Origin: Stegostoma tigrinum
Taxonomy: Eukaryota
NCBI RefSeq assembly: GCF_030684315.1
Contig: NC_081397.1
Span: 4,278,001-4,342,000 of the forward strand
Direction of reading: 5' to 3'
DNA length: 64,000 bases
Below, piece by piece: positions 2,790-62,311 of the stretch. Below the pieces are notes generated by a model. That model was not told where the DNA came from. It did no database searches and saw only the letters and a program-made list of their open reading frames with translations. Both the position numbers and the translations under genes were made by a program. Position 1 is the stretch's first letter. Each line of letters begins with the position of its first letter.

Positions 2790-4130
2790 AATTTAACATG
2801 TAATCTGTATGCCTGTGTGAAAATCCCTTTTATTTATTTCAAATATTCCTTTCACGTGGACTTTCTGGACGTCATAGTTTTGCGAATTGTGAGAAGATAT
2901 AATCATTTCTCTCCAGAAGTCAGTGTCGACAAAAATCATATTTTTTTTCCTGTGGTTCACCAATTCCATTATTCCTCGGCACATGGGCATTTGAGAGTCA
3001 AAGCAAAATGTCGGTTCAGTGATGGGACAAGACATGTTATGAAAACAATTATCCATTATATTCCTTCACGTGTATATTCAAATCCACATTTTTTTTCTCT
3101 CTCCAGTGATATGTGAAACGTCGAGGGTACAGTTAAATGTCTCATTACCGCTGGAATCGAAACTACATCGAGATCAACAAATTCTTGATCACACAAGGAA
3201 TCAAGGGATATGGGGAGGGTGCAGGGAAGTGGAGTTGAAATGCCCAGCATCCATGATTTAAATGGTGGAGTGGACTTGATGGGCCAAATGGTCTGACTTC
3301 CACTCGTATGTCGTATGGTCTTATGGTCTTACATCTGGTTTGTCCAATTGTGTACAGTGGTTTGGGAAAATAATAGTTTTATCAATCTATTGGGATTCTC
3401 TAATGGCTGTCCCGACAAAGTGTCCCCTTGTTCCAATGCATAAGGAAACCTCCCTAACTCTCACACAGGTTGTACTTTGGATCACCCAAAAAATTACAGC
3501 GATTGTAATATTTAATGGTTTGTCATCTGTACACATCAAATGTATCCCTAACCCATTCCATTCCTGCCAAAACACAGATTTTCAGTCTTCGCTTTTGATA
3601 ATCGCCTGAAATCACATACATTTTATTTAATGCTCTGACCCGACCACAAACCTCAGTATGATCATTTAGTCTATTGAATACCCCTTTAAATTGTGAAGTT
3701 AGTTGAGTTAATTGATCACTTGTCGCATCATTCTCTATCCTATTCATGCAGGAACGGTGAACCGCATGTGTCTGCAGCATCTCCGATCAATCTTCTACAT
3801 TCTCTGTTACTTTCTTTCTCTCTGATTGTGTAAACCTCTTAATTGAACAACATCTTGATCAATTCATTATAAATGTTAGGTAAACGTTCTGGACACCACG
3901 TTGGTAACTGAATACCTGAGAGATTCAAAACCAATTCGTGTTGAACTTTCCAAACAATATGTTACCCGCGCTTCAAATAGCCATCCATCCTTCGGGTCCT
4001 TCTTTTTCTGACAGGGCACTCCACAGGGATTTCAGGCTCTTCCCATGTAATAATGAGCGTGATTTAACACACTGTGCAATTGTCAGCGAATTTGGACTTG
4101 ATTTCCATTTTGCAAGTAAAATTAAACCAT
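2790..4130 (-). mobile_element. Decayed env-like (viral fusion glycoprotein) coding remnant, probable endogenous retroviral element
   Basis: Consecutive minus-strand frames read WCPERLPNIYNELIKMLFN...RECRR/LIGD (furin-like site), a heptad-like DQLTQLTSQFKGVFNRLND, and Cys-rich blocks (CPITEPTFCF). There are multiple stops and frameshifts. Confidence 0.45.
3190..3332 (+). mobile_element. CR1 3' tail fragment inserted in the env-like remnant
   Basis: GGAATCAAGGGATATGGGGAG...GGGCCAAATGG followed by a short TATGGTCT tandem tail, similar to other CR1 3' ends in the window. Confidence 0.6.
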
Positions 4131-4479
4131 GAGAATGTGGTGGCTGGGAGAGGGGCAGGGAGGCTTCTCCCAACTCCTCAGATCTGAACGCATCAACGTT
4201 TGATGAGTTCTGGAATTAGACACCTCATGATATACACAAGTACACAGGCTACAACTGGCTCTGCTGAAGGACTGGCTGAATGCTTTGGCTCCTGTGCCCC
4301 TCCCGAGGCTGAGAGCGTCACGTCTGTATTAATATTGTGAATCCCCACCAAGCCACGGAGGCACATTTGCTGATGTGTGACACATCACGCCAAGTGCCAC
4401 CTGCGGATCTTTGTATTTTTTCGAGTTCCCAGTCTGAATTGCTGACCTGCTGTCAATGCCCCGCTGCAACCTACAACAG

Positions 4480-4935
4480 CTCCCCACATCGTGCAAGTGC
4501 TCACCCGAACTAAAGACCGACTCCCCGCCATGGACAGGACCAGTGTCCTCTACAAGATCCCCTGCAGAGACAGCGAGAAACACCACATCAGACAAACAGG
4601 AAGGAAACTAATAACAAGAGTGCATGAACACCAACTGGCTACAAAAGGCACGACCAGTACTCACTCATCTCAATCCACATGGACAAGGAGAACCACAACT
4701 TCGACTGGGACAACACCAAGATCCTGGGACAGGCCAGGCAGAGGCAAGCGCCAGAATTCCTGGAAGCATGGCACTCCACAAAGCAGGCTACGAATAAACA
4801 CATTGAACTCGATCCCACATGCATTCCACTACAGAGGAAACCCGGATGTGAGGCGATCCATTGCAACGGACCCCAGAGTTTAAAAGCCAGGCAGGAAAAC
4901 CGACACTTCATCAGAGGCTGCATTGAGGATGCTTC
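4480..4935 (+). mobile_element. Penelope-like element, GIY-YIG endonuclease end (family B)
   Basis: VLYKIPCRDSEKHHIRQTGRKLITRVHEH, then HNFDWDNTKILGQARQRQAPEFLEAWHS after a frameshift. Confidence 0.8.
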
Positions 4936-5649
4936 TTTCATTTACTGTACACACAAAACAAATACTTCCTCTGCATGTCATGGAGCAGACACCTCAGCAC
5001 CTCCTTCACAACCCCCTCGTGAAGAGAAACCAAGCAGAAGAAATCACTCTTAAAGGCACATACATCTCTCTCTCTCTCGCTCTCTTTGGACTCTATCTCC
5101 ACCACTTCTCATCCCTCCCCTTCCCGACCATACCACCCCAAATCCACTCTTCAGTATAAATACCACTTATTCCCTGCTGATATCAGTTGTGATGAAGAGT
5201 CACCAGACTCGAAGCAGTAACTGTTTTCTTCCTACTGATGCTGCCAGACCTGCTAAGTTTCGAGGGTTTACTGTAACAATTTCAAAGATAATTAGTGATG
5301 AATAATGACTGATGGTTGATTTCGCCAGCCAATACACCAAAATGCAAAAGCTGAACTTTCTGCACTGCTACCTCGGGGAGTCTGTATCATTCCCTGCTCT
5401 TCCTTCTAGACACCGTACTATCTCTCAGCACAGACAGAATCCAAAGTGCAGAACCAAGCTGACACTTCTGCCTCCTGGAACACAATTGCCAGATAATCAC
5501 CCCCTGATTGAGACACTGGCCTGCACAGTTCAGACTTTATTACTTCATCACTGAGCTGCTGTTTCTTGAAATGCAGGCATTTGACAGGATCTTGTCAAAC
5601 CAGGTGGCCAGAAATATGATGTCATGAATTCAGCAAGCTACTTCAGAAA

Positions 5650-28832: not shown

Positions 28833-29045
28833 CTGGAGGAAGACAGAAGATATATCTCTCGTCAATCAACATCAGCCAAATTTGACAATATCAAACAGAT
28901 TAACATATTCAGGTACCAGTTATTAGGATGTTTCTTTTCTTGAACTTCACCTCTCAAAGCAGAACTCCAAAAGTTTGTGATTTTAAATAAGCCTGTTGGA
29001 CCACAACATTGTGTCATGTCCCCCTCCCTCCCCCCATCCCCCTCT

Positions 29046-29073
29046 CTGATGAAGGGTCTAGGCCCGAAACGTC
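29046..29073 (+). ncRNA. Minimal hammerhead ribozyme core 1
   Basis: CTGATGA-AGGGTCTAGGCCC-GAAAC-GTC. Stem I is only about 2 bp. Confidence 0.6.
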
Positions 29074-29366
29074 AGCTTTTGTGCTCCTGAGATGCTGCTT
29101 GGCCTGCTGTGTTCATCCAGCCTCACATTTTATTATCTTGGAATCTCCAGCATCTGCAGTTCCCATTATCTCTGATACTATTTTAACCTCACTGCGAAGC
29201 CTCTTCCAGGGATGCCTAACCTGAAGAAGTTACCCTCCTCCCTCCGGACCAACCTCAGGGAATCTCTCTCCCATTGCAACTCTCTTGTATCTTCTTTGCT
29301 CTCCATCTTCGGTCCGCCTCCCCCTCTCTCCCTATTTATTCCAGTTCCCTCCCCCCATCCCCCTCT

Positions 29367-29394
29367 CTGATGAAGGGTCTAGGCCCGAAACGTC
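29367..29394 (+). ncRNA. Minimal hammerhead ribozyme core 2
   Basis: Identical motif 321 bp downstream of core 1. Confidence 0.6.
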
Positions 29395-29687
29395 AGCTTT
29401 TGTGCTCCTGAGATGCTGCTTGGCCTGCTGTGTTCATCCAGCCTCACATTTTATTATCTTGGAATCTCCAGCATCTGCAGTTCCCATTATCTCTGATACT
29501 ATTTTAACCTCACTGCAAAGCCTCTTCCAGGGATGCCTAACCTGAAGAAGTTACCCTCCTCCCTCCGGACCAACCTCAGGGAATCTCTCTCCCATTGCAA
29601 CTCTCTTGTATCTTCTTTGCTCTCCATCTTCGGTCCGCCTCCCCCTCTCTCCCTATTTATTCCAGTTCCCTCCCCCCATCCCCCTCT

Positions 29688-29715
29688 CTGATGAAGGGTC
29701 TAGGCCCGAAACGTC
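29688..29715 (+). ncRNA. Minimal hammerhead ribozyme core 3
   Basis: Identical motif 321 bp downstream of core 2. Confidence 0.6.
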
Positions 29716-30414
29716 AGCTTTTGTGCTCCTGAGATGCTGCTTGGCCTGCTGTGTTCATCCAGCCTCACATTTTATTACATTGTGTCATGAGAGTTGTGTC
29801 TGATCTTTAAGGGCATCAATTTAAACACAAGTCTGAATCAATTCTTACATCAAGCTGCTTCTTGGCTGAGGATTGTGTTTTTAAATATGTAATTCGACAC
29901 TGAGTGAGATTCAGAAACTGAACAATAATTGCACAGCTCCATCTAAGGTGCTACCTGAAGATGCTGCACCGTTGACACAGCTCATGTTACCAGATCCCAA
30001 CACACTGACTGTTGAAGAGAACAACAGCCGCTATTCCAAATATTTTTCCCGAGACGTATGATCTGTTAACTCCAATCTGCGTCCTTTATAGGTCTTCCAC
30101 TGCGCCCTCCACCATCCCCGGCAACTCGCAACTAACAGCGTAAAACAGCAGCCAAACAGTGAATTTGCAGTGTTTACAAGTCTAAAAGCTACAAGACTGA
30201 CCCCCAGCAGCTTCTTGCCGCTGTGTCTCCCTCAGCAGGCCCACACACAGCCCGAGAAAGGCCTCTCTCTCCCCCTGCCCCCAGGCCGCTCTCTCTCCAA
30301 GTTCCGGGACCAGTTCCTGCCCCGCTCGGCCTCTGACCAACAGCCCCGGGTTCTCCCGGAACTGAGCCCGAATCAATGCCGGTCTCGGAGCCCCCCTCTG
30401 TGTCCCAGACTCAC

Positions 30415-30625
30415 ATCTCGATGCGCTGCCGGAAGGAGCCTGCTGCTCCCTCGCTTCCCTGGGCGCTGGTCTCTCCATTGCGGCCTGTTTCAAACAAACC
30501 TCTTCCACTCACTGAGTAAATGCCCCTCAATGGCAGCGCAGGGGGAGAGCATCACGCATGCGCTCCCCTGGTCATCAAAAAGCAACATTGGGGGCACCGG
30601 GCCAGCCTCACGCATGCGCTGTTAA
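30415..30625 (-). promoter_or_regulatory. CpG-rich promoter with two NRF1-like sites and putative first exon (left copy)
   Basis: GCGCATGCGT at 30554-30563 and 30610-30619 (minus). GCCGCAATGG start context (ATG at 30478). Donor GTGAGT at 30414-30409. Confidence 0.6.
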
Positions 30626-31437: not shown

Positions 31438-32076
31438 TCATTTCTTTGCTGCTTTCTTGGTCACTTTCGCTTTGGCCTTCGTCTTCGTTTTCACCGATTT
31501 TGGGGCCGGTTTTGAGGCCTTGGGGCTCTTGGTCTTTTTCACCTTCTTCACGGGAGTCTTTTTCTGAGGCGCTGCTTTCTTCGCCGCTTTCTTTGGCGTT
31601 GCTGCCTTCTTGCCGGCCGCTTTCTTTCCTGTTGCTTTCTTGGCTGGGGATTTCTTCGCTGCCACCTTCTTGGCCGTTGTTTTCTTCACGGCTGCTTTCT
31701 TGGCGGCTGCTGCGGGTCTCGCCTTCTTTCCCACTTTTGCCTTGACCTGATTCTTTGGGAGTTTGAAGGAGCCGGAGACGCCCTGGCCCTTCACCAGAAC
31801 CAGGGAGCCTTTCGCCAGGCACCTCTTGGTAGCCATCCTGATCTGTGCATTCTGCTTCTCCACATTGACCCCGCTTCTCTGCAACGCCTTCTTTATAGCG
31901 GCCAGAGACGTCCCCTTCCGATCGCTGTTCTCCCCGACAATCTTCACAATCCGCTCGCCCAACCCGGGACCGGCTGTTTTTTGCCTGGGGGCCGCCGCCT
32001 TCTTCTTCTTGGGAGTCTTGGGTTTAGTGCTGGCGGAGGCTGGAGGAGCCGTTTCGGCGGCTGCACTGTCGCTCAT
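31438..32076 (-). CDS. H1: Histone H1, replication-dependent, 212 aa
   Basis: Globular domain (DRKGTSLAAIKKAL...VKGQGVSGSFKL), K/A/P-rich tail with SPAK/TPKK/SPK motifs, intronless, with a 3' stem-loop. Confidence 0.97.
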   Translation of the reverse strand: MSDSAAAETAPPASASTKPKTPKKKKAAAPRQKTAGPGLGERIVKIVGENSDRKGTSLAAIKKALQRSGVNVEKQNAQIRMATKRCLAKGSLVLVKGQGVSGSFKLPKNQVKAKVGKKARPAAAAKKAAVKKTTAKKVAAKKSPAKKATGKKAAGKKAATPKKAAKKAAPQKKTPVKKVKKTKSPKASKPAPKSVKTKTKAKAKVTKKAAKK

Positions 32077-32154
32077 GTCGGGAACTCTGCGCTGAATCTC
32101 TCTCTGTCAGACTGAGCTGGGTCAGCGATGAAGCTGCTGGTGGCGGCACTGAGC

Positions 32155-37086: not shown

Positions 37087-37880
37087 GTGAGTCTGGGACA
37101 CAGATTGGGCGCTTCGCGACCGGTATTGATTCGGGCTCAGTTCAGGGAGAACCGGGGGCTGTTGGTAAGAGGCCGAACGGAGCAGGAACTGGTCCCGGAA
37201 CTTGGAGAGAGAGAGCGGCCTGGGGGCGGGGAGAGAGAGGCCTTTCTCGGGCTGTGTGTGGGCCTGCTGAGGGAGACACAGCGGCAAGAAGCTGCTGGGG
37301 GTCAGTCTTGTGGTTTTCAAATTCCCAACCACTGATGGAAATTCCTTGTTTGGCTTCTGTTTCATGCTGTTTGTTGACATTGTGCAGTCAAAGTCGAAAC
37401 ACAGACAAGACTGTGGAAATATAAGAACCCTGTAAAGGACATGGATTAGAGTCAATATATTCTACAGTTAGTGCATTGGGATTTGGTAACATGAACTGCG
37501 CAGACATTGCAGTGGCTCTGGGTATCACCTTATGTGGAGCTGTACAATTATCGTTCCATTTCTAGATTTTACTCAATTGCTATTGAAACAGATATATATT
37601 TTTTTAAAAAATCCTCAGACAAGGCGCAGCTGAAAGCTAAAATGGAATCAGACCTGCATTTGAAATGATGACTTTAAAGAAAAGGCAGATGTCTCATGAC
37701 ACTGTCATCATCTCTCAGGTTCTTTTGAAATGACAGACTTTTGGAGCACTGTTGTTCAGAAGAAGTTAAAGAACAGAAACATCCTAATAATTATAAACTG
37801 AGTATTACAGTAATCTTTTTGACATGGTAAAACTTAATTGATGTTGATTTACAGGAGTAAACTCTGCTGTCTTCCCCCAG

Positions 37881-54957: not shown

Positions 54958-55068
54958 CCAATCACAGAAAAGCTAATCACATCCTCTGAGATTCTTGTAA
55001 ACTGTCCAATCATGAACAAGACCTCCCCAATCCCTCATTAGCATTGCTGACGCCAGCAGCCTATAAAA
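54958..55068 (+). promoter_or_regulatory. H2B promoter: three CCAAT boxes, octamer variant, TATA
   Basis: CCAAT at 54958, 55006 and 55027. ATTAGCAT at 55037-55044 (canonical H2B octamer is ATTTGCAT). TGACG at 55048. TATAAAA at 55062-55068. Confidence 0.85.
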
Positions 55069-55121
55069 AGCGAGCTCCGCGCCCACTTTCCCTTATTCTG
55101 TGTCTGACAGTGACCGTCGCT

Positions 55122-55502
55122 ATGGCAGATGAGAAGAAATCGCAGGCAACTTCCAAGAAAGGCGCGAAGAAAATCATCAAGAAGGCGCCGGGGAAAAGCG
55201 GCAAGAAAAGGAGCCGACGCAGGAAAGAAAGTTACTCCATCTACATCTACAAAGTGATGAAGCAGGTTCACCCCGACACCGGCATCTCCTCCAGGGCCAT
55301 GAGCATCATGAACTCGTTCGTCAACGATATTTTCGAGCGTATCGCAGGGGAGGCTTCCCGCCTGGCCCATTACAACAAGCGCAGCACCATCAGCTCCCGG
55401 GAGATCCAGACCGCCGTGCGGCTGCTGCTGCCCGGGGAGCTGGCCAAGCACGCCGTGTCGGAGGGTACAAAGGCGGTGACCAAGTACACCAGCTCCAAGT
55501 GA
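55122..55502 (+). CDS. H2B: Histone H2B, replication-dependent, 126 aa
   Basis: [23 protein letters not shown]...AVTKYTSSK. First ATG after the TATA box, followed by a stem-loop. Confidence 0.98.
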
Positions 55503-55716: not shown

Positions 55717-55959
55717 AAATTAGGTTTTAACTTTGTGGTTTATTCTGGGTCTGTATAATTCATGTCCCTAAGCTTTGTGTTTCGTTTTCAATAAATTTTG
55801 TTTAAAAAAATTCGTGTGATCCCTGACCCTCTGCCCTTTATTCTCGGTTGCGTAGTTCCCTGACTGTTTTCCCTGCCTGTATAGAGAGCATATTTATCGT
55901 CACGGAGTCATTTTTTTCTGCAACTTCTTTGTTTTCCGGTTACTCTTTAACCCTTGAAA

Positions 55960-56490
55960 ACAAAGTGTGAGGATGGATGAACACAGCAGGCCAAGCAGCA
56001 TCTCAGGAGCACAAAAGCTGACGTTTCGGGCCGAGACCTTTCATCAGAGAGGGGGATGGGGGGAGGGAACTGGAATAAATAGGGAGAGAGGGGGAGGCGG
56101 ACCGAAGATGGAGAGTAACATTTTGTTATCTTGGAATTTGGGGCGGCACGGTGGCTCAGGGGTTAGCACTGCAGCCTCACAGCGCCAGGAACCCAGGTTC
56201 AATTCCCACCTCAGGCTGTGAGGAGTTTGCACATTCTCCCCGTGTTTGCGTGGGTTTCCTCCGGGGTCCGCTGGTTTCCTCCCACAGTCCAAAGATGTGC
56301 AGGCTAGGTGGAATGGCCATGCTAAATTGCCCGTAGTGTTCAGGGGAGTGTGGGTTATAGGGAGATGGGTCTGGTTGGGATGCTTCAAGGGGCGGTGTGG
56401 ACTTGTTCGGCTGAAGGGCCTGTTTCCACACTGGAGGGAATCTTAAAAAAAAATTCTCCAGCATCTGCAGTTCCCATTAACACTGATACT
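55960..56490. mobile_element. Penelope pLTR fragments with a SINE (56141-56442, +) inserted
   Basis: Minus pLTR 55960-56115 has an intact hammerhead core. The SINE head reads GGGCGGCACGGTGGCTCAG...GGTTCAATTCCC. Confidence 0.85.
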
Positions 56491-57937
56491 CTTTAACCCT
56501 TGATCCGTGCATAAGCTACAGTGCCCCCTGGGGTATGAAACACGAGTTTCGACCCCGGAAAGGAAAGTAACTGTTCTCGTCCCACGAATAGATTTTGAAA
56601 CTTACTTGTCCTTTTCTTTTTTTTTCAATTTTCAAAACGCCACTGAGGCTTCGTCTGATGTTTGCAGAGCACTGCAAATGAGGCTGTCAGGTGTCGCGAA
56701 GAGGCTTTCAAACTGAACTGAGATGTGAAACTGGCTGAAGTCTGATCAAGGACAATAGGGACGGCAAATTTAAACTGAAGTTTCACCTCTCTCAACGGCA
56801 AGAACGTTATGTGAGTTTTTCCTTAATATTTCAGACGCACTTGCAATATGAAAATGAATTAAATTCGATGAAAAATTATTCATTCCTCTTTGTAAAACGT
56901 CTTTTTCCTATTTCGGACGTGTTGGAGGGTTTTGTCCCTGTGGGTAATGAGCCCTAAATTTCTCCCGTGGCAACGAAAGCAAATGACCCCATATTTGAGA
57001 CCAACGAAGAGTAGTATCGTGCGATTTGTGTTTTGTTTCAATTTCCAAATCTCTACGTGAAGTTCTCCGAGTTTATTTTCAGAATGCAGTATGTGGGGCT
57101 TGCCGTTCTCGGTAAGAGGCTTTTCAAAATGAAATCTAGCACAATAATTACAAAATTTGCCGAAGCCGGTATCACTCATTGAGTGAGAAAGAGAGGTTAT
57201 GTCAAGTATCAATTTTTGTAATCTGAAAGGAAATTAAATCGTAAGCATTCATGTAAAGCGTCTTCCTCGTATTGCCCATGTTGGCGGGCTTTTCAAATCG
57301 GAAAGAAAACGGTGGATGATTTGGCGCCGGTATTTTCCTACGGTTTCCACGCAGAGGAATTTTGTTTAATTTTCAAATCTCCCCGCGGGTTCTGTCCAGT
57401 TTTGCAGAAAGCTATAAATGAGGCTTTCTGCTGTCGGTGGGAGCATTTCAAAGTGAACCGAGATGAAAGCAGAACAGCTGCCGGACTGGCATCGCAAAAG
57501 TAGAAATATTGTTGATCTCGTGCAGTAGGGAGCGCGATTGTAAAATGTTGTTTAAAGCAGTAATGCGCTCAACGGGAAAGAAATTGTTGTGTGATACTGT
57601 TATCATTATATCCATTATCGGCATTATATGCTGATCTGAAATAAAATAAATCTGTGCAGAGACTTACTTTTGTCGGGCTCTTTTTTCTGCCATCTGCTCA
57701 TTCTTAAGTATTAAAAAAATCAGAAACACATCGATTCACTGAGGCCTGGGAATCAGAGAGAGATTGTGTGCAGTATACAGGTGTATTCTAACAGTAAATT
57801 ATCTGAAATATGAACGTATTCTTCTTTGTAAAACTTCTTCCAGTTTTGTACATATTGGCGGGCTTTCCGAGTTTGAAAGAAAGCGGTTGATGATTTGGCG
57901 CCAGGACGTTCCCGCCTCCTCCCCTGGCCCTCTCCGG

Positions 57938-58499
<562 letters not shown>

Positions 58500-59315: not shown

Positions 59316-59753
<438 letters not shown>

Positions 59754-59825: not shown

Positions 59826-60529
59826 ATACAGCCCCGTCCCTCAACCCCCTGAGAAACAGCCGCTGAAGGACAGGAAAGGCAGCAAAATAATTGTTGGAGG
59901 CTGATTTGTTAAGTTGAAATGACAGTTGGTCAATTTCAAATCGCCCGCCGATTTCAGCCTGAACTTAAGTAATTTTAAAACGAGAAGTCGCATGCGTCTG
60001 CAACTAAGGTTATATCTTATGCTTTACAAAATTTTATTGTGAACCTAACTTGCAGTCAGCGCGGAGAGGGCTCTGAATCATTTCCTGATGTGTCTCTGAC
60101 AGGCAGTTAGAATGAACTCGCCACTAAAACATCAGCACGGCTACCAGAATCAAACTGAACAAAGTATCTTTCCTGGAAGCGTGAATGAAGTACAAACACT
60201 GCAATATGCAATTAGCGCCTGGGCCCAAAATTACGGACAGAGCAAATTATTATTCATGGTATGGACAACTGGTAGTATTACTGATAGACTGGTATCCACA
60301 AGAAAGGGCATAACCAGCTGCAGAACAGTATCGTCTCGATTGGCCGTGAAACCTCTATCTGTAGTGCAGGGATACCTTGTTTATAAAACACTTTACTGCA
60401 GACAGTATAATTTCTCCTGCAACGCGGGGCACGAAGTTAATATATTTCCTGAAAGGATTGGTTCAAAATTAAAAGTCGCTGCACCAGCCCTATGTGTTGC
60501 CTTTCCCCGTCCTCAGGTCTCCGCTCTCA

Positions 60530-60910
<381 letters not shown>

Positions 60911-61424
60911 TCACTGCAATTGCTGCCGAGTGAGAGCCGAGCTGCCTCACCTTCCGTCTTTATACAGCCCGCCCCGACCTGACTGAGAAAGAGCTGACAG
61001 AGAGTGAGAGGCGGCCCGGGCAGGAAACTGAGTGACAGACAGAGAAATGTCCAGCTCCGCCTCCAGCTAACTCCCGCCCCTCACTGGATCTGGAACTCAA
61101 CCTTTTCTCCACAAGGGCAGTGAACACAAGGCCCGGCAGAAAGCCTGCAGGCTCAAGCTTCATGTTCGAAGATAATAAAACCTGGAACTTTTAAAAGCAG
61201 TTGTGATACAATTAAACGCCCATGTGCCGGCCTTTCTTTCAGAAGACAGCATGTCAGCTTCCATTTCAAAGACAATGTCAATTTCCATTGCTCCAGCAGA
61301 ATCAGACAAAATAATTTCTTGAGGGCTGTGTTGTGAAGTAGGGTTTCTGCGCCAGTGTTACTCTCTCCCTGAATGTGTAAAATAGAAACGGACAGGAACT
61401 GAAATTGACTTTTCCACAGCCATA

Positions 61425-62060
61425 ATAACAAAGTGTGGGGCTGGATGAACACAGCTGGCCAAGCAGCATCTTAGGAGCACAAAAGCTGATATTTCGGGCC
61501 GAGACCCTTCAATCAGTCAATATCACTTTCCACAGCCATATCACATTCCTCAGTGACTGCCTCCGCCTCAGACTCACACCACGTGGATTCCAACTCAAGT
61601 TTCATCCCACATGTTTTGAATACTCCCAGGATCATAGATACCACCATGATGTTCAACATTCCACGGACGGCAGCTGTGGCCACATTCTGAGATCCACCCT
61701 CAATGCGATGCGGCGGCACATGCATACTCTCAACCTCTCTCTCCAACAGCATCGTAACACACTGGCTCAGGGCTGTACCATTCCTCAGTTCCACTTCATC
61801 CTCCGGCTCATTCGTCAGACTAACAAGGAATTTTTTTGTTTTCTTTTCCGATCAGGCAATCAGGCCCACAAGATGCATCAACTCAAAAATACCCATGGCT
61901 GTCTGGAACCTACCTCTCCTTCCCTTCGCTCTGACTCTATCCCCTCCCACAAACACCCCACGTCATGTTGGGTATTGGCCATCCCTCCTAACCTTCTGCT
62001 CTCTGATGCTGAATGCTCTGTACTCAGCAAAGGCCTCAGCTTTATCTCTCTGCATCCAGT
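61425..62060 (+). mobile_element. Penelope 5' ORF fragment preceded by an inverted pLTR piece
   Basis: SHITFLSDCLRLRLTPRGFQLKF...AECSVLSKGLSF, matching the N-terminal domain of PLE ORFs. Confidence 0.8.
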
Positions 62061-62311
62061 TCTGAGGAAGGGTCATCGGACCCGAAATGTTCACTTTTTT
62101 TCCCTCCATAGATGCTGCCAAATCTGCTGAGCATTTCCAGTAACTTTGTTTTTGTTCCTGAACTGCAAGTGCACCCGAACTGATGGTCAGTGAAAATGAG
62201 AGAGGGTGTCCTCACACTAATTCATTGTAGAATGTGCAGGAGGAACTGGGTGTAAATGGAGCCAAGAAAGTGTGCTTTGAGTGTTTCTAATTAATTAATG
62301 TCTACGTCTCC

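Follow-up and report, generated by a model that had tools for sequence, protein, structure and literature searches.

The window, the whole 64,000-nucleotide stretch of DNA that we analysed, contains three histone stem-loops recognised by Rfam among many Penelope fragments. Five of its reading frames we take to be histone-like: H1 (31438-32106), H2B (54990-55502), H2A (58047-58499), H3 (59316-59753) and H4 (60527-60910). Among named proteins the best matches are from Rhincodon and Stegostoma, so that the window most likely represents a histone cluster of a carpet shark. In the H4-like frame, which may be a pseudogene or an error, the tail has a substitution and the sequence is no longer the usual one close to the end. 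Degenerate satellites with repeats of 16/33 bp and 47/49 bp are present in both orientations at 13.9-18.8, 18.9-24.4 and 40.1-51.6 kb. Inverted duplicate arms (28.7-30.6 kb and 36.9-37.9 kb) flank the H1-like gene; their identity is about 73% near the insertion described here versus 88-94% in the GC-rich stretch 30168-30596, a contrast suggestive of conversion or of a conserved element. The first arm carries a tandem array between two direct repeats, which we refer to as a target-site duplication (TSD).

29006..29018, + strand: left copy of the 13-bp TSD, an exact repeat whose core is present once in the mirror arm
29019..29024, + strand: 5' junction with six additional pyrimidines, of which three do not match the unit
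29025..29777, + strand: tandem array of 2.35 x 321 bp with one G/A difference (29196/29517), from TRF and the sequence
29777..29789, + strand: right copy of the TSD, whose first base fits the element too
37695..37707, - strand: paralogous empty site in the inverted duplicate arm, outside the insertion, from alignment

The sequence-only reading had described about 2.4 near-identical units with one G/A difference, bounded by a perfect 13-bp TSD and missing from the mirror arm, and all of this is borne out. On sequence comparison the direct repeat is exact (29006-29018 versus 29777-29789), with a chance of arising at random of roughly 2e-5 for a 20 x 20 search of offsets, and it exceeds 4 bp, as in non-LTR retrozymes. 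TRF gives 29025-29777 with a period of 321, 2.3 copies and 99% matches; we count 2.35 units, in which the sole internal difference, G29196 versus A29517, falls at a CpG. The 321-bp unit has neither RT nor endonuclease and only 26 codons of a Penelope-like element (PLE). Six bases precede the array (29019-29024), three of which do not match the unit, and these pyrimidines may stem from slippage or untemplated addition.

The mirror arm aligns as an empty site in which the target core occurs once, and a closer paralog in sequencing run X2 likewise lacks the insert (joint 29009 to 29809). The empty mirror arm and the empty X2 paralog identify the array, as judged from sequence comparison, as an insertion, undated, and the bounding TSD supports the single insertion site proposed earlier. 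Because identity of the mirror arm near the insertion is only 73% (284/391 aligned bases), it is useless for dating. The insertion had also been called recent, for which the single difference between units and the near-identical family reads speak; the mirror arm at 73% lends that part of the claim no help. The exact empty-site joint is absent among the 15 joints listed of 1255. One contig of run X1 matches 28864-29018 exactly and ends at the final base of the left TSD, which could reflect a branch between filled and empty sites, a nearby variant or a coverage gap, each of which fits.

A unit derived from a Penelope-like element

Each unit runs from PLE 3'UTR through a hammerhead, a tail and a 5'UTR into the first 26 codons of the PLE ORF, and then into 3'UTR again.

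29212..29289, + strand: first 26 PLE ORF codons, unit 1, from the match to XP_059505880.1
29533..29610, + strand: first 26 PLE ORF codons, unit 2, from the 321-bp period
29288..29289, again 29609-29610, + strand: deletion junction joining ORF start and 3'UTR, with two bases that could belong to either side, from alignment and loose ends at 29288 and 29609
29288..29366, again 29609-29687, + strand: end of the PLE 3'UTR, as behind GIY-YIG fragments in the window, from alignment
29138..29173, ends also at 29459 and 29494, + strand: PLE tail with the family's two common 3' ends about 35 nt apart, from loose ends

The ATG at 29212 opens 26 codons identical to residues 1-26 of XP_059505880.1, a Stegostoma PLE protein, and the ORF-start peptide is 96% identical to residues 1-28 of that protein (E 6e-08). 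XP_059505880.1 in turn matches two PLE sequences, an N-terminal fragment from the window (E 7e-27) and a full-length protein (E 3e-10). When the 30-aa frame itself was compared with a distant full-length PLE by BLASTP, the match was not significant. Two of the three HMMER matches for the ORF-start peptide (P0013 and P0014) are unrelated repeat proteins and were dropped. Past codon 26 the unit switches to PLE 3'UTR. From 29288 through the hammerhead and tail it is 81-96% identical to six other copies within the window, three of which sit behind GIY-YIG-type frames; one of these three frames gives a weak Pfam GIY-YIG match, below the cutoff, and is 87% identical to an RT-GIY-YIG protein. For the ~100 nt ahead of 29288 no counterpart was found elsewhere in the window.

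Since the ORF start matches a PLE protein and 3'UTR follows codon 26, the unit is, on this comparison, a PLE that has lost almost its entire ORF together with part of the 3'UTR by deletion. It retains the pLTR/3'UTR homology found behind a GIY-YIG ORF, an ORF start downstream of the hammerhead and a 30-40-nt tail, and it lacks the single ORF with RT and GIY-YIG of an autonomous PLE, the ORF being deleted after codon 26. We rejected a splice origin of the junction, as no AG lies ahead of the 3'UTR side. The sequence-only reading had thus overlooked that the unit is an internal-deletion derivative with an ORF start: RT coding sequence is indeed absent, as it had stated, and each full unit nevertheless holds the first 26 PLE codons. 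Its attribution of the array to PLE origin and PLE machinery gains support from the ORF-start match, the TSD and the family 3' end.

Hammerhead cores and their predicted folds

Three hammerhead cores begin at 29046, 29367 and 29688, 321 bp apart, and their GUC triplets end at 29073, 29394 and 29715, the predicted cut sites, just as had been proposed.

29046..29073, + strand: minimal type I hammerhead core 1, predicted cut after 29073, from the sequence read against PMC4209133
29367..29394, + strand: hammerhead core 2, from the sequence
29688..29715, + strand: hammerhead core 3, from the sequence

At least two consecutive units therefore carry a complete type I hammerhead, with three cores in all. 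Each core has an extra A ahead of a 4-bp stem II, a palindromic ACGU for a dimeric stem III, and a 2-bp stem I. These are the features of the minimal PLE hammerhead: the conserved core, an extra base between 9 and 10.1, a G10.1-C11.1 pair and the palindromic stem III. The stems are shorter than those of the Schistosoma type, in which stem I has 4-5 bp and stem II 7-8 bp. PMC4209133 describes the minimal PLE hammerhead as having the extra base and the palindromic stem III and as working as a dimer, and also reports a 2-bp helix I in D. virilis. Rfam at gathering thresholds gave no hammerhead in the window, its three hits all being histone stem-loops; the call here is made from the sequence itself and that published description of the minimal hammerhead (PMC4209133).

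In folding calculations the motif alone is most stable as a hairpin in which the catalytic core pairs with its own cut site, at -11 kcal/mol. This energy lies below the -5 kcal/mol that the retrozyme preprint (10.64898/2026.07.22.740005) uses as an operational threshold, yet the fold that it measures is the inactive hairpin. When a stretch with two cores is folded, stem II and the dimer stem III both stay unpopulated, and the active dimer fold lies ~22 kcal/mol above the minimum. Shuffled sequences are as stable as the circular unit (z +0.4). Because the preferred fold is inactive and the active one costly, cleavage of the naked RNA should be poor; with the count of stem I, these models make likely the weak cleavage anticipated earlier from a stem of about 2 bp. 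Activity is compatible with these folds, because the anole PLE hammerhead cleaved only with protein present (PMC11167929).

In another PLE subfamily of the window, a hammerhead-like core at 62062-62093 has a longer stem II and a changed stem III.

The family in public sequencing runs

Context for the family came from four of 17 public runs (X1, X2, X5 and X15); organisms B-E are not among them. None of the 17 is listed as an RNA run, which carries no information on expression. Bisulfite depth in X15, with the two units summed, was ~1,030 at the ORF start, ~22,700 at the 3'UTR end and 0-2 in the flanks, which corresponds very roughly, for an assumed genome size of 3-5 Gb, to ~3,000-5,000 family copies with the ORF start and 70,000-120,000 with the 3'UTR end. 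Since ~6,200 and ~6,500 reads depart at 29288 and 29609 into normal 3'UTR, the position of the junction is fixed. A 31-nt pLTR pattern had 0 matches in viral, metagenome and prokaryote contigs.

The common 3' ends of the family lie at 29138/29459 and 29173/29494, ~35 nt apart. In PMC11167929 the PLE tail is tied to two internal RT start sites, and by analogy the two common ends may be read as two such sites. The array's own 3' end, 29777, is ~3 nt short of the common end 29138/29459, which fits what would be expected of PLE target-primed reverse transcription.

Three of the 15 listed joints (1255 in total) are other fusions of ORF start to 3'UTR, with skips of 33, 64 and 56 and implied units of 288, 257 and ~265-269 nt. 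Two of these three are present in both samples, with microhomologies of 6 and 4 bases. In addition, three of the 24 listed pieces (of 248,593) span the junction region with 15-18 gap letters. Judged from such joints, similar deletion derivatives seem to have formed repeatedly. None of the 24 pieces listed of 248,593 places the exact junction of the array at another locus.

Two further joints among the 15 listed start at 29463 and 29496 and both lead to 29716, the base that directly follows a predicted cut. One is found in one contig and the other in 1+5 contigs, and each starts a few bases from a tail end. The double coincidence of tail end and cut site suggests that cleaved RNAs may sometimes be copied, in a post hoc reading of 15 joints out of 1255 whose sides of 21-24 letters were matched at 80% likeness. 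By contrast, X2 and X5 have their listed 5' loose ends (29045, 29683 and 29687) where the core starts or close to it, ~29 nt before the cut site, and none of the 24 listed of 2852 lies at the cut site itself; these ends at the core start count against a general role for cleavage. The loose ends of X15 at 29368 and 29689 we attribute to bisulfite trimming rather than to the ends of elements.

Many family copies start with the hammerhead core or close to its first base, family-wide at 29045/29687 and in the window at 61516, 55717 and 31260. Copies that start there often lie head-to-head on opposite strands, and the hairpin of core and cut site could let the cDNA fold back and prime itself.

Origin of the array

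We consider the array, with a probability of about 0.65, to be a non-autonomous mini-Penelope, or non-LTR retrozyme, of which 2.35 units were copied at once by a PLE RT-endonuclease acting in trans. As the sequence shows, a deletion that starts at codon 27 of the PLE and stops ~79 nt short of the hammerhead left the 321-nt unit, whose transcript would have been bound in trans by a PLE RT-GIY-YIG protein; by analogy with the anole PLE, the retained ORF start is a possible binding site. The endonuclease would have made nicks 13 bp apart and the RT would have started at the family's tail site, a step based on the TSD and the position of the array end, both of which are seen directly. Reverse transcription would then have covered 753 nt, passing three cut sites, all of them intact, and the same deletion junction twice, and have halted in the pyrimidine tract. 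Because the RT crossed three cut sites and two junctions, the template would have offered the unit more than twice.

The template may have been a 321-nt circle formed by hammerhead cleavage and ligation, a tentative proposal to which we give less than an even chance, or, almost as probably, an uncleaved transcript of a tandem source copy. Both predict the same array sequence, as does growth at the DNA level of an insert of 1.35 units. The circle is weakened as a template because the anole PLE in vitro had uncleaved RNA as its main substrate (PMC11167929). Likewise, the reading that involves cleavage is weakened because 8/9 Xenopus retrozyme dimers remained uncleaved in vitro and 1/9 was cleaved (10.64898/2026.07.22.740005).

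Growth at the DNA level would have begun with a PLE-made insert of 1.35 units, its junction copied once or made by one template switch, and have reached 2.35 units later by unequal crossover, with no circle involved. We think this unlikely: the terminal repeats of such an insert would be only ~110 bp, which is little homology for an unequal crossover, and repeats of this sort are more prone to collapse than to growth. The final sequence, TSD and ends would nonetheless be identical to those seen, and the exact junction does not recur among the rows listed. Junctions also vary genome-wide, often at short microhomologies, so one-off fusions seem common, and local amplification from PLE termini by unequal crossover is proposed in the preprint (10.64898/2026.07.22.740005). 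The variation in place of other junctions bears in the opposite direction on repeated template jumps by the RT on full-length or cleaved linear PLE RNA, with no pre-existing mini-element. Here the two deletion junctions are base-identical and the array reads through three cut sites with no bases added, so that such jumping appears improbable, even if the joints from tail to cut site suggest that the RT jumps or restarts at RNA ends. That the number of units is an assembly error, the true allele having 1.35 units or some other count, is the least probable of these explanations and very much so, given that one base, at a CpG, tells the two full units apart and that, in the flanks and at both copies of the TSD, the sequence is clean and stays collinear with the paralog; for its part, no piece spans the whole array among the 24 listed of 248,593, a set made up of contigs and 151-nt reads.

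Set against known systems, the mini-Penelope favoured here is a well-formed new example of an already described kind of retrozyme. It shares with metazoan non-LTR retrozymes, as described in PMC7229834 and 10.64898/2026.07.22.740005, head-to-tail units of ~300 bp, a type I hammerhead in each unit, the absence of RT, a TSD of more than 4 bp and a relation to PLE pLTRs; it differs in having a minimal PLE hammerhead where theirs is canonical, and its GC content of 50.8% narrowly misses the <45-50% of PMC7229834, a descriptive trait. PMC7229834 defines the metazoan non-LTR retrozyme class and its circular RNAs, and PMC4209133 proposes a circle model for PLE tandems. Penelope/Poseidon-type PLEs (PMC4209133, PMC11167929 and PMC3846280) share the minimal core, the extra base before stem II and the palindromic stem III of their pLTRs, as well as a 30-40-nt tail, a pLTR overlapping the ORF start, TSDs and, in neighbouring copies, inverted pLTR pieces; unlike them, the array has no RT or endonuclease and consists of the pLTR/ORF-start segment only, repeated. 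Multicopy head-to-tail insertions are also made by MRC1 and other non-autonomous Chlamys PLEs of Chlamydomonas, which differ in belonging to the clade with an N-terminal endonuclease and in having no canonical hammerheads (PMC8557442). Plant LTR retrozymes are likewise non-autonomous and hammerhead-bearing with a proposed circular-RNA route, and differ in their type III hammerhead, LTRs, PBS/PPT and 4-bp TSD, where the array has type I and 13 bp (10.64898/2026.07.22.740005).

According to the preprint (10.64898/2026.07.22.740005), non-LTR retrozymes occur in 20/31 vertebrates, including one chondrichthyan, where their mean length is 363 bp, and the preprint argues for an origin from PLE pLTRs; in its text from abstract to discussion the word 'deletion' is absent and 'TSD' appears once, for plant elements. 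Its supplementary tables may already include a similar family. Among the papers listed in searches of the open-access literature there was none on a shark retrozyme or on cut-site joints. New here are the derivation of the unit at base level, the end at an RT start site and the hint of cleavage footprints in the family. The deletion origin is resolved to the base for the shark array, unlike for known retrozymes.

The rolling-circle claim of the sequence-only reading is a plausible proposal. The retrozyme cycle of cleavage, circularisation and PLE reverse transcription has been proposed since 2014 from co-occurrence and phylogeny, and the preprint also allows plain satellite-style growth (10.64898/2026.07.22.740005). 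A TSD-bounded 2.35-mer that ends at a PLE RT start site helps to separate retrotransposition from satellite-style growth, and this locus alone does not settle between the retrozyme life cycle and such growth. A wider reading would join these observations: shark PLEs would repeatedly spawn retrozymes through separate deletion events, each leaving in place the hammerhead, the tail and no less than ~50 nt from the start of the ORF, the array would be a one-step rolling-circle copy, and the tail-to-GUC joints would be fossils of germ-line cleavage and of reverse transcription of cleaved RNA. We hold this combination to be doubtful; if true, it would map the cis-needs of PLE mobilisation and provide evidence from living cells for a ribozyme with hardly any cleavage in vitro.

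Flanking repeats were sought at 11 other family ends in the window. Repeats of 14-17 bp, which speak for the PLE mechanism proposed for the array, are found at three of the 11, one of them inside a 49-bp satellite, while one end has 10 bp, four have none and three have only distant or internal matches. At 55941-56503 a PLE end fragment and an inverted tail piece lie between 17-bp direct repeats; the similarity of the target to the 5'UTR of the element itself points to twin priming, and the insert that splits the inverted piece is presumably tRNA-SINE-like. A further inverted pLTR piece, with a 14-bp flanking repeat, lies at 61411-61540, at the start of the N-terminal PLE ORF fragment.
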